IMG/VR virus record: IMGVR_UViG_2654587674_000004
Source: a virus
Lineage: Duplodnaviria; Heunggongvirae; Uroviricota; Caudoviricetes
Reading direction: 5' to 3' (one strand)
DNA: 6,776 bases
The notes beneath the pieces are model-generated. The model searched no databases, was not told the DNA's origin, and saw only the letters and a list, made by a program, of their open reading frames with translations. Positions 1 through 6,776 of this stretch are shown piece by piece (position 1 is the first letter of the stretch; each line of letters begins with the position of its first letter). A program made the translations under genes and the position numbers.

Positions 1-13
1 TTGTGGAGTGGAT

Positions 14-1288
14 ATGGCAGCAGTAAAAATCTCAGGTGTGCTGAAAGATTGTGCGGGAAAACCAATACAGAACTGCACTATTCAACTGAAGGCAAAGCGT
101 AACAGCACCACGGTACTGGTGAACACGGTGGCCTCTGAAAATCCGGATGAAGCCGGGCGTTACAGCATGGATGTTGAGCATGGCCAGTACAGCGTCATCC
201 TGCTGGTTGAAGGTTTTCCGCCTTCACATGCCGGGACCATTACCGTCTATGAAGGCTCCAGACCAGGTACGCTGAATGATTTTCTCGGTGCCATGACGGA
301 AGAGGATGTCATGCCGGAGGCATTGCGTCGTTTTGAGGCAATGGTGGAAGAAGTGGCACGCAACGCCGAAGCCGCCTCTCAGAGCGCAGCGGCGGCAAAG
401 AAATCCGAAACTGCAGCGGCATCATCGAAGAACGCGGCGAAAACCTCAGAAACGAATGCAGCTAATAGTGCACAGGCGGCAGCGACCTCAAAGACTGCAT
501 CGGCAAACTCAGCGACAGCAGCCAAAAAATCAGAAACCAACGCGAAAAACAGTGAGACAGCCGCAAAGACGAGCGAAACCAACGCAAAGTCCAGCCAGAC
601 GGCAGCGAAAACCAGCGAAACGAATGCCAAAGCCAGTGAAACTGCGGCAAAAAACAGCCAGGCTGCAGCAGCTGAAAGCGAGAGCGCGGCAGCCGGTTCT
701 GCGACTTCAGCAGCTGGATCAGCAACTGCTGCGGCTAACAGCCAGAAAGCTGCGAAGACGAGTGAAACTAACGCAAAGTCCAGCCAGACGGCAGCGAAGA
801 CCAGCGAAACGAATGCCAAAGCCAGTGAAACTGCGGCGAAAAGCAGTCAGGATGCAGCGGCCCAAAGCGAGAGTGCCGCAGCCAGTTCTGCAAGCGCGGC
901 GGCTGCTTCTGCCACTGCATCAGCTAACAGTCAAAAAGCAGCAAAAACCAGTGAAACCAACGCAAAGGTGAGCGAAACAGCGGCTGCGAACTCAGCGAAA
1001 GCATCGGCAGCAAGCCAGACGGCAGCTAAAGCAAGCGAAGATGCAGCCAGAGAGTACGCAAGCCAGGCTGCGGAGCCGTATAAATATGTCTTACAGCCGC
1101 TGCCTGATGTGTGGATACCATTTAACGATTCGCTGGATATGATTACGGGCTTTTCGCCATCATATAAAAAAATTGTTATTGGTGATGATGAAATAACGAT
1201 GCCTGGCGACAAGGTTGTTAAGTTTAAACGACAGGGACGGATAATTTTGGTTTTACCTATGGAAAGTTTGTCTGCAACGATTCTCTGA
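14..1288 (+). CDS. stf: Side tail fibre protein, Stf family: N-terminal tail-attachment domain plus Ala/Ser/Thr-rich repetitive shaft. At about 425 aa it is short for this family and may be truncated or split from the next ORF.
   Basis: The N-terminus (MAAVKISGVLKDCAGKPIQNCTIQLKAKRNSTTVLVNTVASENPDEAGRYSMDVEHGQYSVILLVEGFPPSHAGTITVYEG...) matches my recollection of the conserved N-terminus of lambda Stf and the K-12 prophage Stf homologues. GGAG at 5-8 sits 5 nt upstream of ATG 14; the ORF track's GTG at 8 is the less likely start. The body is KTSETNAK-type repeats. Confidence 0.8.
   Translation: MAAVKISGVLKDCAGKPIQNCTIQLKAKRNSTTVLVNTVASENPDEAGRYSMDVEHGQYSVILLVEGFPPSHAGTITVYEGSRPGTLNDFLGAMTEEDVMPEALRRFEAMVEEVARNAEAASQSAAAAKKSETAAASSKNAAKTSETNAANSAQAAATSKTASANSATAAKKSETNAKNSETAAKTSETNAKSSQTAAKTSETNAKASETAAKNSQAAAAESESAAAGSATSAAGSATAAANSQKAAKTSETNAKSSQTAAKTSETNAKASETAAKSSQDAAAQSESAAASSASAAAASATASANSQKAAKTSETNAKVSETAAANSAKASAASQTAAKASEDAAREYASQAAEPYKYVLQPLPDVWIPFNDSLDMITGFSPSYKKIVIGDDEITMPGDKVVKFKRQGRIILVLPMESLSATIL
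571..968. repeat. Intragenic tandem duplication in the stf shaft: 189-bp (63-codon) unit, two full copies plus the start of a third, embedded in a wider low-complexity region (about 370-1060)
   Basis: The motif ag(c/t)gaaac(c/t)aacgcaaagtcc recurs at 571, 760 and 950 (period 189). The encoded 63-aa units are near-identical (KSSQTAAKTSETNAKASETAAK...ANSQKAAKTSETNA). Confidence 0.85.
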
Positions 1289-1311
1289 TTGGGCAAACCT
1301 CAGCCATTAAT

Positions 1312-2217
1312 ATGGCATCAATTGCTGCAACAAAGTCAGTTGATGTCTCAGGCGATAATAAACACGTGACAACCTCATGTCGTTTTAAAACAGAACTGCA
1401 GGTAAGGTTGCGTATCCGGTTTGATAAATATGACGGTAGCGCAACAACTTTTCTTGGTGATGCGTATATTGATACACAAACGCTTGAAATTAATATGACA
1501 GGCGGTGCTGCCTCAAGGATTACAGCGAGAGTCAGAAAGGACGAAGCTACCGGATGGATTTTTGCAGAGGCAACAATTCAGGCAATTGATGGGGAGTTAA
1601 AAATAGGCTCTCAGATACAGTATTCTCCTAAGCAGAGCGGGGCAACCGTATCTGGTGACTATATTTATCTGGCCACCCCACAAGTAGAAGATGGGCCTTG
1701 TGTATCATCTTTTATTATATCAGGAGCGACGGCGGCGACCCGCGCAAGCGATATAGTTACAGTTCCAATTAAGAATAATCTTTATAATCTTCCTTTTACG
1801 GTTCTTTGTGAGGTACATAAGAACTGGTATAAAACGCCAAATGCAGCGCCACGTGTTTTTGATACCGGCGGTCATCAAACCGGAGCGGCTATTATTCTTG
1901 GCTTCGGTCGTTCAACAGATTACGACGGATTTCCTTATTGCGATATTGGAGGAGCTAACAGACGGGTAAACGAAAACGCATCGCTTGAAAAAATGGTTAT
2001 GGGGATGCGTGTAAAGTCAGAGCAGTCTACGTGCTCAGTAAGTAACGGGCATATATCCAGCGAAACAAAAACCACATGGTCCTGTATTCAGAACACCGCA
2101 ATTATCCGTATTGGAGGCCAGACTACAGCCGGGTTACGTCATTTATTTGGTCATGTCAGGAATTTCAGAATATGGCACAAGGCATTGACTGATGCTCAGG
2201 TGGGGGAGTCAATCTAA
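1312..2217 (+). CDS. Tail-fibre distal / receptor-binding protein with a C-terminal concanavalin-A-like (LamG-type) jelly-roll motif; possibly the distal part of a split tail fibre
   Basis: The C-terminal segment ...GLRHLFGHVRNFRIWHKALTDAQV fits the characteristic closing strand of LamG/ConA-like lectin domains (F-x-G-x-h-x-x-h-R-I-[YW]-x-[KR]-A-L-[ST]). Its reading frame is open from 1228, overlapping the 3' end of stf. Composition is beta-rich and Gly/Thr/Ser-rich. Confidence 0.6.
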   Translation: MASIAATKSVDVSGDNKHVTTSCRFKTELQVRLRIRFDKYDGSATTFLGDAYIDTQTLEINMTGGAASRITARVRKDEATGWIFAEATIQAIDGELKIGSQIQYSPKQSGATVSGDYIYLATPQVEDGPCVSSFIISGATAATRASDIVTVPIKNNLYNLPFTVLCEVHKNWYKTPNAAPRVFDTGGHQTGAAIILGFGRSTDYDGFPYCDIGGANRRVNENASLEKMVMGMRVKSEQSTCSVSNGHISSETKTTWSCIQNTAIIRIGGQTTAGLRHLFGHVRNFRIWHKALTDAQVGESI

Positions 2218-2498
2218 TGAAAGATTTAACACTCAAATTTGCCGACAGGGCCGACTTTTCGGCCTTTATGGAGAGTATTGGCTATTATGATGACGAGTCG
2301 ATGCAGGATGATATTCTTATTGACGTGATAGGTAACGTGTACAAAGAAACCGGAGAACTGACTGAAGATGGCGAACCGGTATGTGTTAAGGAAGACGGAT
2401 ATTTTGTAAACGTGCGCATCATTAATGATTCGCAAATATCGTCATTATTCGATGAATACGTGGTTGCTGTTGAGCATCAACTTCGTGGCTGGATGTGA
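2217..2498 (+). CDS. Small acidic hypothetical protein (93 aa), translationally coupled to the upstream gene; function unknown (possibly a fibre-associated chaperone or adaptor)
   Basis: The stop/start overlap TAATG at 2215-2219 couples it to the upstream ORF. The protein is strongly acidic (many D/E) with no predicted transmembrane segment. I do not recognise the family. Confidence 0.5.
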   Translation: MKDLTLKFADRADFSAFMESIGYYDDESMQDDILIDVIGNVYKETGELTEDGEPVCVKEDGYFVNVRIINDSQISSLFDEYVVAVEHQLRGWM

Positions 2499-2507
2499 GG
2501 AAGAAAA

Positions 2508-3548
2508 ATGGCTACATCGACAGTAATTCCTGATGACATCAAAACGCTAAAATCCGACGTTAGCAAATTAAAAAACGATCAAGGAAGCTACGCAACAAAA
2601 TTATATGTAGACAGCAAAGATGAAATCGTTGGTGACTGGTCTGCTTCATGGTATCAGCAGGTATTGCCAACTAGCGGAGCTATATTTGGGAGAAAACTCC
2701 GCTCAACTCACAGGACGGCAGGTGTTGAGGATGCGTATTGCGAACTATACCTCAAAAAATGGATAGACAGTCCAGGTAACGCAATGGCGCGCCTTAACCT
2801 GAACGATAACGGGACAAACATTTGCTGGGACTTTACCAACCTTTATGGCGGTACGATGATTTTTCCCGGTGACAGCGGATACCTCAAAATGGGTAACTGC
2901 CTTATGTCATACAGCAAGCGTGGAAGTAACGCGCTTATTAAATTTGATTACACCGACACATTACAGATCAAATATGCCAATCATGGGTCAACCATGACAT
3001 TAAACACACAGGGAACCGCTTATGCTGGTGTTACTGCTCAATTGTGGGGCAACTCCAGCCGTCCTGTTGTTTATGAAGTCGGTGTTGATGGTGGCGCTTA
3101 TATGTTCTATGCGCAGAAAAATACCGATAACACCTATATGTTAAGCGTTAATGGTGCATGTCATGCCACCGCATTTAACCAGCATTCCGACCGGGATCTG
3201 AAAGACAACATTCAGGTGATCGATAATGCAACCGACCGCATCCGTAAAATGAACGGCTATACATACACGCTTAAAGAAAACGGTATGCCCTATGCTGGTG
3301 TCATTGCACAGGAAGCTCTGGAAGCAATCCCAGAAGTTGTAGGTTCCGCAATGAAATATCAGGACGGTGCAAGCGGATCGGAAGGTGAAGAAGGTGAACG
3401 TTATTACACAGTAGATTATTCTGGTGTTACTGGCTTGCTTGTTCAGGTAGCCAGAGAGTCAGACGACAGAATAACAGCACTGGAAGAAGAAAATGCAGAA
3501 TTAAAACAAAGATTATCTGCAATTGAGGCGACGCTTGCGTCTAAATAA
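2508..3548 (+). CDS. Tail fibre / tailspike-like protein with a C-terminal intramolecular chaperone auto-proteolytic domain (peptidase S74 / endosialidase-chaperone type)
   Basis: The C-terminal 120 aa (...FNQH-SDRDLKDNIQVIDNATDRIRKMNGYTYTLKENGMPYAGVIAQEALEAIPEVVGS...YYTVDYSGVTGLLVQVARESDDRITALEEENAELKQRLSAIEATLASK) match the conserved S-D-x-x-x-K-x-N-I...G(V/I)IAQE...PE(V/A)V...VDY...coiled-coil pattern of the self-cleaving chaperone domain of phage K1F endosialidase and T5 L-shaped fibre. The Shine-Dalgarno GAGGAAG lies 7 nt upstream of ATG 2508. Confidence 0.75.
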   Translation: MATSTVIPDDIKTLKSDVSKLKNDQGSYATKLYVDSKDEIVGDWSASWYQQVLPTSGAIFGRKLRSTHRTAGVEDAYCELYLKKWIDSPGNAMARLNLNDNGTNICWDFTNLYGGTMIFPGDSGYLKMGNCLMSYSKRGSNALIKFDYTDTLQIKYANHGSTMTLNTQGTAYAGVTAQLWGNSSRPVVYEVGVDGGAYMFYAQKNTDNTYMLSVNGACHATAFNQHSDRDLKDNIQVIDNATDRIRKMNGYTYTLKENGMPYAGVIAQEALEAIPEVVGSAMKYQDGASGSEGEEGERYYTVDYSGVTGLLVQVARESDDRITALEEENAELKQRLSAIEATLASK

Positions 3549-3552
3549 TATT

Positions 3553-3577
3553 AAGGGGCCGAGCGCCCCGTTTTATT
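3553..3577 (+). terminator. Rho-independent terminator after the tail-fibre gene block
   Basis: GGGGC (3555-3559) pairs with GCCCC (3565-3569) around a 5-nt loop, followed by the T-tract GTTTTATT (3570-3577), immediately after the TAA stop at 3546-3548. Confidence 0.7.
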
Positions 3578-3590
3578 GGGTAGGATGAAA

Positions 3591-3884
3591 ATGGATATAA
3601 CACCTTTCCTTCATGCACTTTGTGCTGTGGCTGCGCAGGTACTGGTTGGTCTTTTTACCGGAAACTGGGCTTACGGGGCGATAGCCGGTTGTACGTTCTT
3701 CATTGCTCGTGAACATACCCAGGCAGAATATCGCTGGATTGAAATGTTCGGGCATGGCAAGCGTATGAATATGCCGTGGTGGGGTGGTTTTGATCCGCGC
3801 GTGTGGGATGTGGCAAGCCTGATGGATTTTTCTGTGCCGGTGGTGGCTTGTCTGCTGGTCTGGCTGTTGGTTAATCGTGGGTGA
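3591..3884 (+). CDS. Small integral membrane protein (about 97 aa, 2-3 predicted TM helices), phage moron-like; function unknown
   Basis: Hydrophobic stretches ITPFLHALCAVAAQVLVGLFTGNWAYGAIAGCTFFIA and LMDFSVPVVACLLVWLLV. AGGA at 3582-3585 sits 5 nt upstream of ATG 3591, which I prefer over the track's TTG at 3576 because that lies inside the terminator T-tract. Confidence 0.5.
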   Translation: MDITPFLHALCAVAAQVLVGLFTGNWAYGAIAGCTFFIAREHTQAEYRWIEMFGHGKRMNMPWWGGFDPRVWDVASLMDFSVPVVACLLVWLLVNRG

Positions 3885-4037: not shown

Positions 4038-4106
4038 CACGCCGTATGCAAGGAGCATGATTGCGCTCGACTGGCGAGCGCTCGATAGTGCTACTATTGA
4101 ATGATT
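4038..4106. repeat. Copy A of an imperfect direct repeat of about 70 nt (partner at 5509-5575)
   Basis: Two conserved blocks shared with copy B in the same orientation: cacgccgtatgcaagga (4038-4054; 15 of 17 identical to 5509-5525) and cgatagtgctactattgaatgatt (4083-4106; 22 of 24 identical to 5552-5575), separated by a divergent 28-nt spacer. Weaker similarity may extend about 30 nt further upstream. Confidence 0.7.
4063..4081. repeat. Perfect 7-bp inverted repeat inside the spacer of repeat copy A (hairpin or palindromic binding site)
   Basis: GCGCTCG (4063-4069), 5-nt loop ACTGG, CGAGCGC (4075-4081). No flanking T-tract on either strand, so it is not a typical terminator. Confidence 0.5.
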
Positions 4107-4241
4107 GCTAGTCTAGGCGGATTGTACTTAAGTAATATGACGGTTCAAGGCGTTTAATCTGAAACCAGCCACATATTAGCCTTTTCAAACATTTCCTGAA
4201 CACTCAGGCTTACCTGCTCTTTCTCGTGCTTGCTGGCATTT

Positions 4242-4275
4242 GTGTTGAGCGCCGGTGAATACTCTTACTCAACAC
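4242..4275. repeat. 8-bp inverted repeat with an 18-nt spacer (possible operator-like dyad)
   Basis: GTGTTGAG (4242-4249) and CTCAACAC (4268-4275) are exact reverse complements. Confidence 0.4.
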
Positions 4276-4347
4276 TCCCAGAATTATATCTGTTGCATCA
4301 GGCAGACCATCAAAATTCTTTTGTCATAAACGAGTTCCACGAATAAT

Positions 4348-4379: not shown

Positions 4380-5330
4380 GAGTAGCTAAAAAGATTTTTC
4401 GTTATGTATTAATGTATCTGTCACTTATTTTATAGTAAAGATGATATGCCAGCAAGAAATGGAGTAAATACTGTAATGTGTGCAGATACATTATTAATAA
4501 AGTCCTTATATGCTTCTTTAAAACAGCCGCTTTGGTGACTGGCTGCCAGTGCCTGTACATTATCTATAAGGTGTGATTCTGTCGCGCCATCAAAGTTTTT
4601 CGATTTTATTGCCTCAATCATTTCATTAAATATTGTGGGCTCATTATAATTTGTCGTAGTAGTTGCCGTAGCACCTGAAGAATGTATATTGATACTAGAA
4701 CCGGAAATTCCACTGACATGAATATTAGCTTCTTGTTTCATAAGAGGTAAACCATTCTCCATCTTGTATAGGTCACTATCTTGTAGCATCTGCAATGTGA
4801 TACGTACTGCTGCTAATAGTTGTTCTTGCTTTTTGAATAAGGAACACATCTGTTCTACAGACCAAAGCTGAACTGCATTTTCTTCGCATGTTTTTTTAGC
4901 TATATTTGGCACTTCCGAATCATAATTACCATAAACCCAAGTGTCCTTGAATCTTTCGATAATAGCTGTCAACGTTGGAAATTTACTGAAATCACTATTA
5001 ATGGATAGTAACTCATCAGACATATAAAGTGCCATATCTCTGCCTTCCGCATATACTGCTTCCACTTTATTCCGTGTTGCAAATGGTATTCTTGAAATAA
5101 AACGAAAATCCTCTTCATTTTTTAAATGGACCCAGTCTTTATCAAAACGGCTAAATTCGTACCCTATCGATAACAGTCTACTTATATATTGGGCTACTGA
5201 TTCCAAATCTTTTCTTATGTCCAAAGTATTACTCCTGCTTGTCAACCGAGTCTGTCGGTTTTCTTACAAATGGCTTGTCTTTAAAGTTCTGATTAAAAAG
5301 ACGCTAACCAATACTTAATAATACATGAAA
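4380..5330. other. AT-rich island of foreign-looking composition containing the orphan gene
   Basis: Hand counts on 60-nt lines inside 4441-5040 give about 30% GC, against about 50% in the tail-fibre and sit genes on either side. Confidence 0.7.
4430..5224 (-). CDS. Orphan hypothetical protein (264-271 aa) in an AT-rich island: helical N-terminal region, Ser/Thr/Gly-rich linker and hydrophobic C-terminal tail. Candidate accessory cargo (defence/exclusion, toxin or effector); function unassigned.
   Basis: Longest ORF is 4430-5245 with a TTG start. I prefer the in-frame TTG at 5222-5224 because AGGAG (minus strand, plus coordinates 5232-5236) lies 7 nt upstream of it; there is no in-frame ATG until about residue 71. 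The C-terminus AHITVFTPFLAGISSLL is hydrophobic and the linker reads HVSGISGSSINIHSSGATATTTT. I recognise no family. Confidence 0.6.
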   Translation of the reverse strand: MDIRKDLESVAQYISRLLSIGYEFSRFDKDWVHLKNEEDFRFISRIPFATRNKVEAVYAEGRDMALYMSDELLSINSDFSKFPTLTAIIERFKDTWVYGNYDSEVPNIAKKTCEENAVQLWSVEQMCSLFKKQEQLLAAVRITLQMLQDSDLYKMENGLPLMKQEANIHVSGISGSSINIHSSGATATTTTNYNEPTIFNEMIEAIKSKNFDGATESHLIDNVQALAASHQSGCFKEAYKDFINNVSAHITVFTPFLAGISSLL

Positions 5331-5355: not shown

Positions 5356-5508
5356 ATCAATCGGGAACTGCGGCCCCTTTGCGTATCCTTTTTTGTTTCT
5401 TCACCGTCTGGTCGGTGTTCTGCTGAGACTGCTAATTTCCTGTTTTTGCTAGTGCTGTCTTGGCACTGTCCATCGTGATTGGTGGACTGGTGAAGTTGAA
5501 ACCGCAGA

Positions 5509-5575
5509 CACGTCGTATGCAAGAACGTGCTGCGGCTGGCTGGTGAACTTCCGATAGTGCGAGTATTGAATGATT
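5509..5575. repeat. Copy B of the imperfect direct repeat of about 70 nt (partner at 4038-4106)
   Basis: Blocks cacgtcgtatgcaagaa (5509-5525) and cgatagtgcgagtattgaatgatt (5552-5575), in the same order and spacing (26-nt spacer versus 28 nt) as copy A. Confidence 0.7.
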
Positions 5576-5696
5576 TACAGCCGTTATTGATTTTACATAT
5601 TTTTTGTATGAAAGGATTAGCGCCTCCTCCCAACGTCCGCCCATGACTTTCTGGACTGCAGTGTACTAGCGGACAATGCTGCCCTCGGATGTTGTG

Positions 5697-6554
5697 CTAA
5701 TTGGGGGATAACAGATCCTGTCTATGAGCGTTTCCCTTTGTGCGTGCGTTGAAACTGATAACGGTAAACGTCATGATGAACACAACCGCGAATAAGACGA
5801 CAATCGTCGGAGCTGGTGCGCTGTCGATAAAAAAGGACAGCCAAACACCAGTCATTGAGACTATTACCGATATGCCAGTCGCCAGTAGGAGTGCAATATG
5901 AAAGCGTTGTGTCAGGAGTACCGCAATGGCGCCAGGCGCAATGAGCAGAGAAATGGAGAGAATGATACCTACTGCTTTCAGCGTCGCCACAATGGTCAGG
6001 GAAACCATGCACAGCAGCCCATAATGCAGCCATCGCGTATGCAAACCGCTTACCTGCGCCTGTTGATAATCAAAGCTGAACAGCAAAAAATCCCGCCATT
6101 TTACGCTAATAACAAGTGTAACCAGCCCGGCAATAATCATCGTCTGGATTATATCGCCGATGGTTACCCCGAGCATGTCGCCGAAAAGAATATGGTCAAG
6201 ATGTATGTCTGGTTTGACTGCAATATACAAGATCAGACCTGCGGCAAACATGCCAGAAAAAACAATCCCCATCACTGTATCTTGCTTGATTCGGCTGTTG
6301 TCTTTCAGGTATCCCGTCGCCACCGCGCAGAATACTCCGGCGATAAATGCCCCTGTAGCCAGAGGTAACCCCAGAATCCAGGCAAGCACGATGCCAGGAA
6401 AAACCGCATGACTCATCGCGTCACCCATCAGTGCCCAACCTTTCAGGACCAGAAAGACCGACAGCAGCGCACAGGGTATGGAAACTACCAGTGAAATCAG
6501 CAGTGCGTGACTCATAAAGGTGAACTGCAGTGGCTCCAGTAATAATGCCATCAT
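5697..6554 (-). CDS. sitD: ABC-3 family Mn/Fe transporter permease, SitD/MntD-like
   Basis: 285-aa polytopic membrane protein with the ABC-3 permease pattern (...DAMSHAVFPG..., ...ILFGDMLGVTIGDI...). Its start overlaps the stop of a second upstream permease in an ATGA arrangement (6551-6554), as in sitC-sitD type operons. The SitD versus MntD/other ABC-3 assignment is from context and recall. Confidence 0.8.
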   Translation of the reverse strand: MMALLLEPLQFTFMSHALLISLVVSIPCALLSVFLVLKGWALMGDAMSHAVFPGIVLAWILGLPLATGAFIAGVFCAVATGYLKDNSRIKQDTVMGIVFSGMFAAGLILYIAVKPDIHLDHILFGDMLGVTIGDIIQTMIIAGLVTLVISVKWRDFLLFSFDYQQAQVSGLHTRWLHYGLLCMVSLTIVATLKAVGIILSISLLIAPGAIAVLLTQRFHIALLLATGISVIVSMTGVWLSFFIDSAPAPTIVVLFAVVFIMTFTVISFNARTKGNAHRQDLLSPN

Positions 6555-6776
6555 GAGCGATCCTCCAGCGCTTTATGCGCACGCCGACGATTTGCCAAAA
6601 GCCCATGGGTGGGCGCAAATACAAATGCTAAAAGAAACAGCAGTGTCTGCGCCACCACGATGATTCCACCTGTCGCGCCGTCCAGAAAGTAACTGACCCA
6701 CGCGCCGAGGAAACTGGTTACACTGCCAATAGTTACAGCAATTATGAGCAGGCGGGGAAAACGATCGGTTAACAAC
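6551..6776 (-). CDS. sitC: ABC-3 family Mn/Fe transporter permease, SitC/MntC-like; 3' portion only, the gene continues beyond the window end
   Basis: The C-terminal 74 aa are open to the window edge (...SYFLDGATGGIIVVAQTLLFLLAFVFAPTHGLLANRRRAHKALEDRS), typical of an ABC-3 permease C-terminus. The TGA stop overlaps the sitD ATG. Confidence 0.7.
   Translation of the reverse strand, partial: LLTDRFPRLLIIAVTIGSVTSFLGAWVSYFLDGATGGIIVVAQTLLFLLAFVFAPTHGLLANRRRAHKALEDRS

Follow-up and report, generated by a model that had tools for sequence, protein, structure and literature searches.

The sitABCD genes aid the acquisition of manganese and iron and the resistance to oxidative stress in extraintestinal and invasive E. 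coli and in Shigella. As right-end cargo of lambdoid prophages they are already known from phage 21, from the LF82 prophage Perceval and from the sit island. The deposited record of phage 21 (OL657228.1) shows, in this order, a side tail fibre, two small genes, sitDCBA, small ORFs, an icd' fragment, attP, int and xis; a literature search on phage 21 together with sitABCD found no paper. In the case of Perceval (OV696612.1), virions have been reported, and its sitABCD genes, which were termed a moron, are transcribed in the LF82 lysogen (PMC9928086). A review (PMC7545054, citing Fisher et al. 2009) describes the so-called PAI sit of Shigella flexneri and E. coli as an unstable, acquired and phage-related island that carries sitABCD at several chromosomal sites, with aspS and yecN given as insertion sites. 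Plasmids of the ColV/ColBM type also harbour sitABCD, placed between IS1 and Tn3 remnants, beside the aerobactin genes and without phage genes. A last element of comparison is the Rac prophage of K-12 (ttcA-intR...stfR-tfaR-pinR-ynaE-ttcC-uspF), which lacks sit.

The window, that is, the whole stretch of 6,776 nucleotides analysed here (IMG/VR record IMGVR_UViG_2654587674_000004), was laid out from a six-frame ORF listing and profile searches (Pfam, PHROG). On its (-) strand, a full-length sitD of 285 aa (5697-6554) matches the Pfam family ABC-3 (PF00950) along profile positions 1-256 of 258 (E 1.9e-75), preceded by the 3' end of sitC (6551-6776), whose last 74 codons, from an ORF that runs off the window, cover 52 positions at the end of this profile (206-257 of 258, E 2.7e-11). 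The sitC stop and the sitD start overlap by 4 bp. The identical DNA of the E. coli chromosome NZ_CP033884.1 is annotated in RefSeq as sitD (WP_000968125.1) and sitC, followed by sitB and sitA, and the full sitC of this genome (locus L001) is an ABC-3 match with an E value of 3.8e-83. Outside the window, and contiguous with it in a 100%-identical genome, sitA encodes a ZnuA-type binding protein (PF01297, E 9.2e-87) and sitB an ABC ATPase (PF00005, E 9e-31). Pfam and RefSeq thus agree with the sit-like ABC-3 transporter genes that a first-pass annotation had noticed at 5697-6776: sitC and sitD encode the two permeases of the SitABCD Mn/Fe ABC importer, whose transport of Mn2+ and Fe2+ is predicted from sequence. 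In such an importer, SitA would bind periplasmic Mn2+ and Fe2+, SitC and SitD would form the membrane channel, and SitB would hydrolyse ATP.

The remaining genes are mostly those of a phage. A side tail-fibre module occupies positions 8-3548 of the (+) strand (Pfam phage_tail_N, E 1e-65; Peptidase_S74, E 4.7e-14; PHROG tail families), and comprises stf, split into two ORFs (8-1288 and 1312-2217), followed by the gene of a 93-aa protein (2217-2498) and by that of a tail-fibre protein (2508-3548) that carries a Peptidase_S74 chaperone domain. It is followed by the last phage-typical gene (3576-3884, +), which encodes a small membrane protein (phrog_1443, E 8.6e-59) that regularly comes after the tail-fibre genes in such phages. 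As sitC and sitD both lie on the (-) strand, they would be transcribed towards lower coordinates, that is, towards a gene for a 264-aa protein and, convergently, towards the tail fibres, which is the direction initially proposed. On the other hand, the description of sit as abutting prophage DNA is only approximate: about 1.8 kb separate sitD from the last phage-typical gene, a gap occupied by the 264-aa gene and by a dinI-like gene with a frameshift. In the closest complete genomes examined, stf is a single open frame of about 795 codons, and 172 bp that are absent from the window at 1230/1231 are present there (L001 21231-21402), and this deletion of 172 bp in the window shifts the frame and splits stf. 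The N-terminal part of stf (around 380-1000) shows 21-nt-periodic and 189-nt tandem repeats, which encode a stretch rich in Ala, Ser, Thr and Lys. Some insertion sequences were also observed in this region: in NZ_CP033884.1, shortly before the window begins, lom and stf are separated by a copy of IS200C (L001 19435-19893), which is absent at that position in strain 7/2, and NZ_CP085063.1 has an IS3-family insertion within the window region.

The mapping of the window onto complete genomes offered the boundaries of the element. The whole window was matched in 92 complete E. coli chromosomes with a coverage of at least 80%, many of them at 100% identity. The gene order in NZ_CP033884.1 consists of lambda-like head and tail genes, J, lom, IS200C, stf and other tail-fibre genes and the small protein, and continues with the dinI-like pseudogene, a hypothetical protein, sitD, sitC, sitB, sitA, an interval of 585 bp, uspF, ompN and nifJ (ydbK). 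The 585-bp interval between sitA and uspF is made up of the sit promoter region and about 200 bp nearly identical to the right end of Rac in K-12, which include GGGGCAAAA arm repeats and a ttcC fragment. An att core of 26 bp (TTGTTCAGGTTGTATTGTTCTTTCTT) is identical in the alignment of attB (strain HS), attL (ttcA-intR) and the attR of the window strain, with bacterial and phage sequences exchanged on either side of it, as site-specific integration predicts. The attR core sits in a ttcA fragment, 360 bp past the sitA start codon and adjoining uspF (L001 29678-29703), so sit lies between attL and attR. A tRNA or tmRNA gene as the integration site is ruled out, as the att site belongs to a protein-coding gene, ttcA.

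Strains with an empty site allow the complementary comparison. HS shows the order dbpA-ttcA-uspF-ompN, and empty-site strains, where ttcA adjoins uspF, match a query of the sitA-uspF junction from the core onward only, and are devoid of both the phage and sit. These data bear on the possibility that sit is ancestral core DNA beside uspF, with a prophage inserted independently nearby, which would fit with the conserved uspF-ompN-nifJ neighbourhood of sit in the 495 genomes with a sitA-attR-uspF junction. However, the att core between sit and uspF and the empty sites without sit place sit within the prophage and refute this scenario; moreover, more than half of the complete E. coli genomes have no sit at all, and others have it at icd or on plasmids. 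In consequence, we regard a core origin of sit as extremely improbable. The window is instead, very probably, the right arm of a ttcA-integrated Rac-type lambdoid prophage that carries sit as phage-borne cargo. The first suggestion that the whole window is one horizontally acquired island holds with some qualifications, because this island amounts to a lambdoid prophage's right arm, its att boundary falls outside the window and the arm has been rejoined by an inversion.

K-12 Rac, which uses the same integration site with the same 26-bp core, has a similar right arm, including the GGGGCAAAA repeats and the flanking hairpin sequence, but carries pinR-ynaE-ynaM in place of the 264-aa gene of the window and lacks sit, which indicates that sit is dispensable for this arm. 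Relative to Rac, a boundary motif (hereafter motif X), sitDCBA and the promoter form an insertion between ...GCGGTTGG (a left edge also given as ...GTGCTGCGGTTGG) and GACTTTGATTGAG.... On the other hand, strain AR_0077 carries an apparently intact Rac-like prophage (ttcA-intR-xisR-recET...trkG...terminase-capsid-tail-J-lom-stf-tfa'-sitDCBA-attR-uspF), whose X-sitD and promoter-arm junctions are those of the window. Together with the attR position and the icd-type phages, this prophage bears out the view of the first-pass annotation that sit loci reside in prophage-like islands.

Perceval and phage 21 are the icd-type relatives of the window arm. Both share with it the same sit operon, with a nucleotide identity of 97.7%, in the same orientation and at the same place on the map, with the side tail-fibre genes on one side and the att site on the other, as well as the small membrane-protein gene after the tail fibres, the promoter region and about 45 bp of 3' flank. 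However, they integrate at icd, whereas the window arm has an attR of the Rac/ttcA type. In LF82 and phage 21, the homologue of the 3576-3884 protein directly precedes sitD and motif X lies at the opposite end of sit, upstream of sitA, whereas in the window motif X lies downstream of sitD and a module with the dinI pseudogene and the 264-aa gene is intercalated. Compared with the PAI sit, the insertion sites also differ, with ttcA/uspF and icd for the sit loci of the present analysis and aspS and yecN in the review (PMC7545054).

A survey of 5426 complete E. coli genomes detected sit in 2384 of them, corresponding to 1683 chromosomal and 1060 plasmid places, and the alternative junction sitA-...-icd', which is the one of icd-integrating lambdoid phages such as Perceval and phage 21, in 739 genomes. 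Moreover, sit is carried by 28 deposited phage records (phage 21, Perceval and about 26 others), and so it occurs in the packaged genomes of viable phages, which applies to relatives of the window prophage and not to the window's own prophage. The closest match in the phage database (98.9%), the so-called Salmonella phage SPF_0923 (ON032529.1), was not accepted as proof of a free phage, since uspF, ompN and a fragment of a pyruvate-flavodoxin oxidoreductase (a ydbK homologue) are part of the record, as expected from a prophage prediction that overran attR into the chromosome. Despite its Salmonella name, the record looks like an E. coli-type prophage. The empty sites, the sit-free Rac, the AR_0077 prophage, the icd-type phages, the 28 phage records and the patchy distribution among genomes all argue for sit as an accessory phage cargo, or moron.

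A comparison of all these contexts defines a sit cassette of about 3.7 kb, as the similarity runs from some 45-50 bp past the sitD stop to the vicinity of ...TAGGCTTTGAAAT, at about 180 bp in front of sitA. In the window, its 3' flank (5651-5696, -), a stretch of some 45 bp that follows the sitD stop, is common to the prophage, phage 21, LF82 and plasmid copies in an alignment of five contexts. The sit allele of the window is about 97.7-97.9% identical to those of AR_0077, phage 21 and plasmids, and the ColV/ColBM-type plasmids contain the same cassette and promoter (about 97.6% identity). A different history could be drawn from such a movable unit, in which sit was recombined into a resident, decaying prophage, either homologously or by means of an IS, from a source such as a plasmid or a second prophage, the resident prophage being just a landing pad. 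The same cassette of about 3.7 kb with the same ends on plasmids, between IS1 and Tn3 remnants, would agree with this idea, and so would an IS3-like remnant that adjoins sit in LF82 and phage 21, the rearrangement of sit islands by homologous recombination mentioned in the review (PMC7545054), and the position of the cassette, which lies to one side of motif X in the ttcA-type phages and to the other side in those of the icd type and must therefore have been rearranged at least once. Yet viable phages (phage 21, Perceval and infant-gut lambda-like phages) package sit, and the identical X-sitD and promoter-arm junctions of an apparently intact ttcA-type prophage indicate that these junctions are older than the lineage of the window, so we consider the landing-pad history quite unlikely. 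In one plasmid copy (L005 9600-9680), about 40 nt past the promoter resemble the Rac-type phage arm (...GGTAATGGCAAAGCAAAAAT...), which hints at the capture of the plasmid cassette from a prophage context.

Between the tail fibres and attR, the phage would carry two stacked non-phage modules, one with the dinI pseudogene and the 264-aa gene and the other being the sit cassette of about 3.7 kb. The window contains two copies of a sequence of about 75 nt (4045-4118 and 5505-5578, 76% identity), which bracket the dinI'/264-aa module. The second copy of this motif X belongs to a larger block (X2, 5487-5650), a homologue of the Rac right arm with a hairpin and about 110 nt of conserved prophage backbone according to alignments, which extends to around 5650 and is directly followed by the sit cassette. 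The first copy (X1, 4045-4118), detected as a direct repeat and by alignment, is degenerate, with about 76% identity to the start of X2. The presence of motif copies at the module boundaries, in agreement with the different G+C contents (about 35% in the 264-aa module versus about 49-51% in the sit cassette), leads us to read the region from the tail fibres to attR as a putative zone of cargo, in which two modules or more were acquired independently. The idea of stacked cargo advanced from the sequence at first sight stands, since the two modules are separate, differ in G+C and are each bounded by a motif copy. An Rfam scan of the window at E <= 0.1 gave no match, which indicates that motif X is not a described RNA family.

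Motif X is not restricted to this phage. In other E. coli prophages it occurs just after pinE and the tail-fibre genes, beside restriction-modification, HNH/AAA and other defence-like cargo. Additional copies were located at 15630-15761 of locus L004, 5001-5328 of L020 and 5001-5153 of L021. In prophages of different types, the cargo modules that follow the tail-fibre or pin genes are repeatedly edged by this motif, with restriction-modification, HNH/AAA, FRG-domain and Zorya genes among its neighbours.

The module bracketed by the two copies starts with a frameshifted DinI-like pseudogene (4154-4340, -), annotated by RefSeq on identical DNA (L001 24326-24512), between the tail-fibre module and the gene of the 264-aa protein (4430-5224, -). 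The low G+C of this gene (about 35%) points to a separate cargo module. The first-pass annotation called it an orphan, a term that does not apply in a strict sense, because the protein has 85 homologues in the cargo regions of prophages and satellites. They show identities of 32-76%, are nearly all of about 264 aa, and appear scattered through Gammaproteobacteria (Enterobacterales, Pseudomonas, Vibrio, Marinomonas and others), where their neighbours, amid variable genes, are integrases or tail genes of phages or the primase genes found in satellite-like elements; the family therefore occupies variable regions of prophages and P4-like satellites. No match to the protein was obtained in Pfam, PHROGs or NCBIfam, in a tblastn search against 50,697 phage records, with a PDB sequence profile, or by Foldseek against the PDB at E <= 0.001, and PADLOC gave a single weak match (PDC-M14B, E 0.0017). 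Its AlphaFold model (pLDDT 82) consists for the most part of helices and is disordered between 163 and 194. From its genomic context, our guess is that the 264-aa protein could be a candidate defence or exclusion factor. A broader proposal, in which motif X is a shared hot spot of cassette exchange in lambdoid and e14-like prophages and the 264-aa protein a new single-gene anti-phage or exclusion factor, is rather doubtful. If the hot-spot reading were true, sit, restriction-modification systems and single defence genes would be swapped and stacked as self-contained cassettes by recombination.

The sit cassette would be a transcriptional unit of its own, formed by sitABCD and by an Mn/Fe-responsive promoter located some 60-130 bp ahead of sitA, and its end would lie about 45 bp after sitD. 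Upstream of sitA there is a perfect palindrome, AAACATAGCAACGGCTATGTTT, which corresponds to the consensus of the MntR box, and an element, GAAAATGATTATCATTAGC, a Fur-box-like site that matches 16 of the 19 positions of the Fur box. Expression of sit from the lysogen would be independent of the lytic programme of the phage, as in a moron. At the other end of the operon, a hairpin of 14 or more bp is predicted at 5500-5537 (the RNA fold of 5420-5560 on the (-) strand gave -37.2 kcal/mol and a z-score of -2.79), and it is followed on this strand by a U-rich stretch, UUUCAACUU, so that it may terminate the sit transcripts. A simple terminator scan from sitD to the 264-aa gene called no canonical terminator, the 5500-5537 hairpin included, and thus sit transcripts may also read through into the 264-aa gene. 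In the proposed mechanism, the sit transcripts that head for the tail fibres probably end at this conserved hairpin.

A last question to be considered is the present state of the prophage. In NZ_CP033884.1, the far end of the element with sit is a non-Rac integrase that adjoins rspB, the site of Qin in K-12, and the element carries Qin-like genes, while the Rac-type intR beside ttcA heads a second prophage that ends with pinQ-ydfK-ynfT-ydfJ', the other end of Qin. The tail-assembly, J and Lom proteins of the two prophages are identical (the same accessions), with their genes in inverted orientation, and the gene order on the uspF side, and not on the rspB side, is reversed with respect to K-12. 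The identical inverted genes and the one-sided reversal indicate that a terminus-proximal segment was inverted through recombination between the prophages of the Rac and Qin sites. This arrangement was read from loci L002, L001, L009 and L010 of NZ_CP033884.1 and L013 of NZ_CP023820.1, and strain 7/2 shows the same inverted order. An element that ends, opposite sit, with a cognate integrase beside ttcA is thus found in AR_0077 but not in the lineage of the window, where the non-Rac integrase near rspB, and the intR-ttcA end on the reciprocal hybrid, suggest that the window arm is of the Rac type and the present element a hybrid. As neither hybrid would have cognate att ends, sit can probably no longer be mobilised by excision. 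The inversion has joined the sit arm to a non-cognate integrase end, and it probably locks the cargo in the chromosome of this lineage. The hybrid prophage also contains a Kiwa KwaB-like gene and neighbouring hypothetical genes (L002 14648-16287), as well as queH and two toxin systems, relBE and hokD.

In any case, the features that are specific to the window are minor ones, namely an additional module of cargo, the side of motif X on which the cassette lies and the inversion between prophages. The cassette would spread with phages of the ttcA and icd types, and also on ColV-type plasmids, and its carriage by temperate phages would account for the patchy distribution of sit. Phage carriage of these genes is already documented, and the window represents one more, slightly rearranged example of it.
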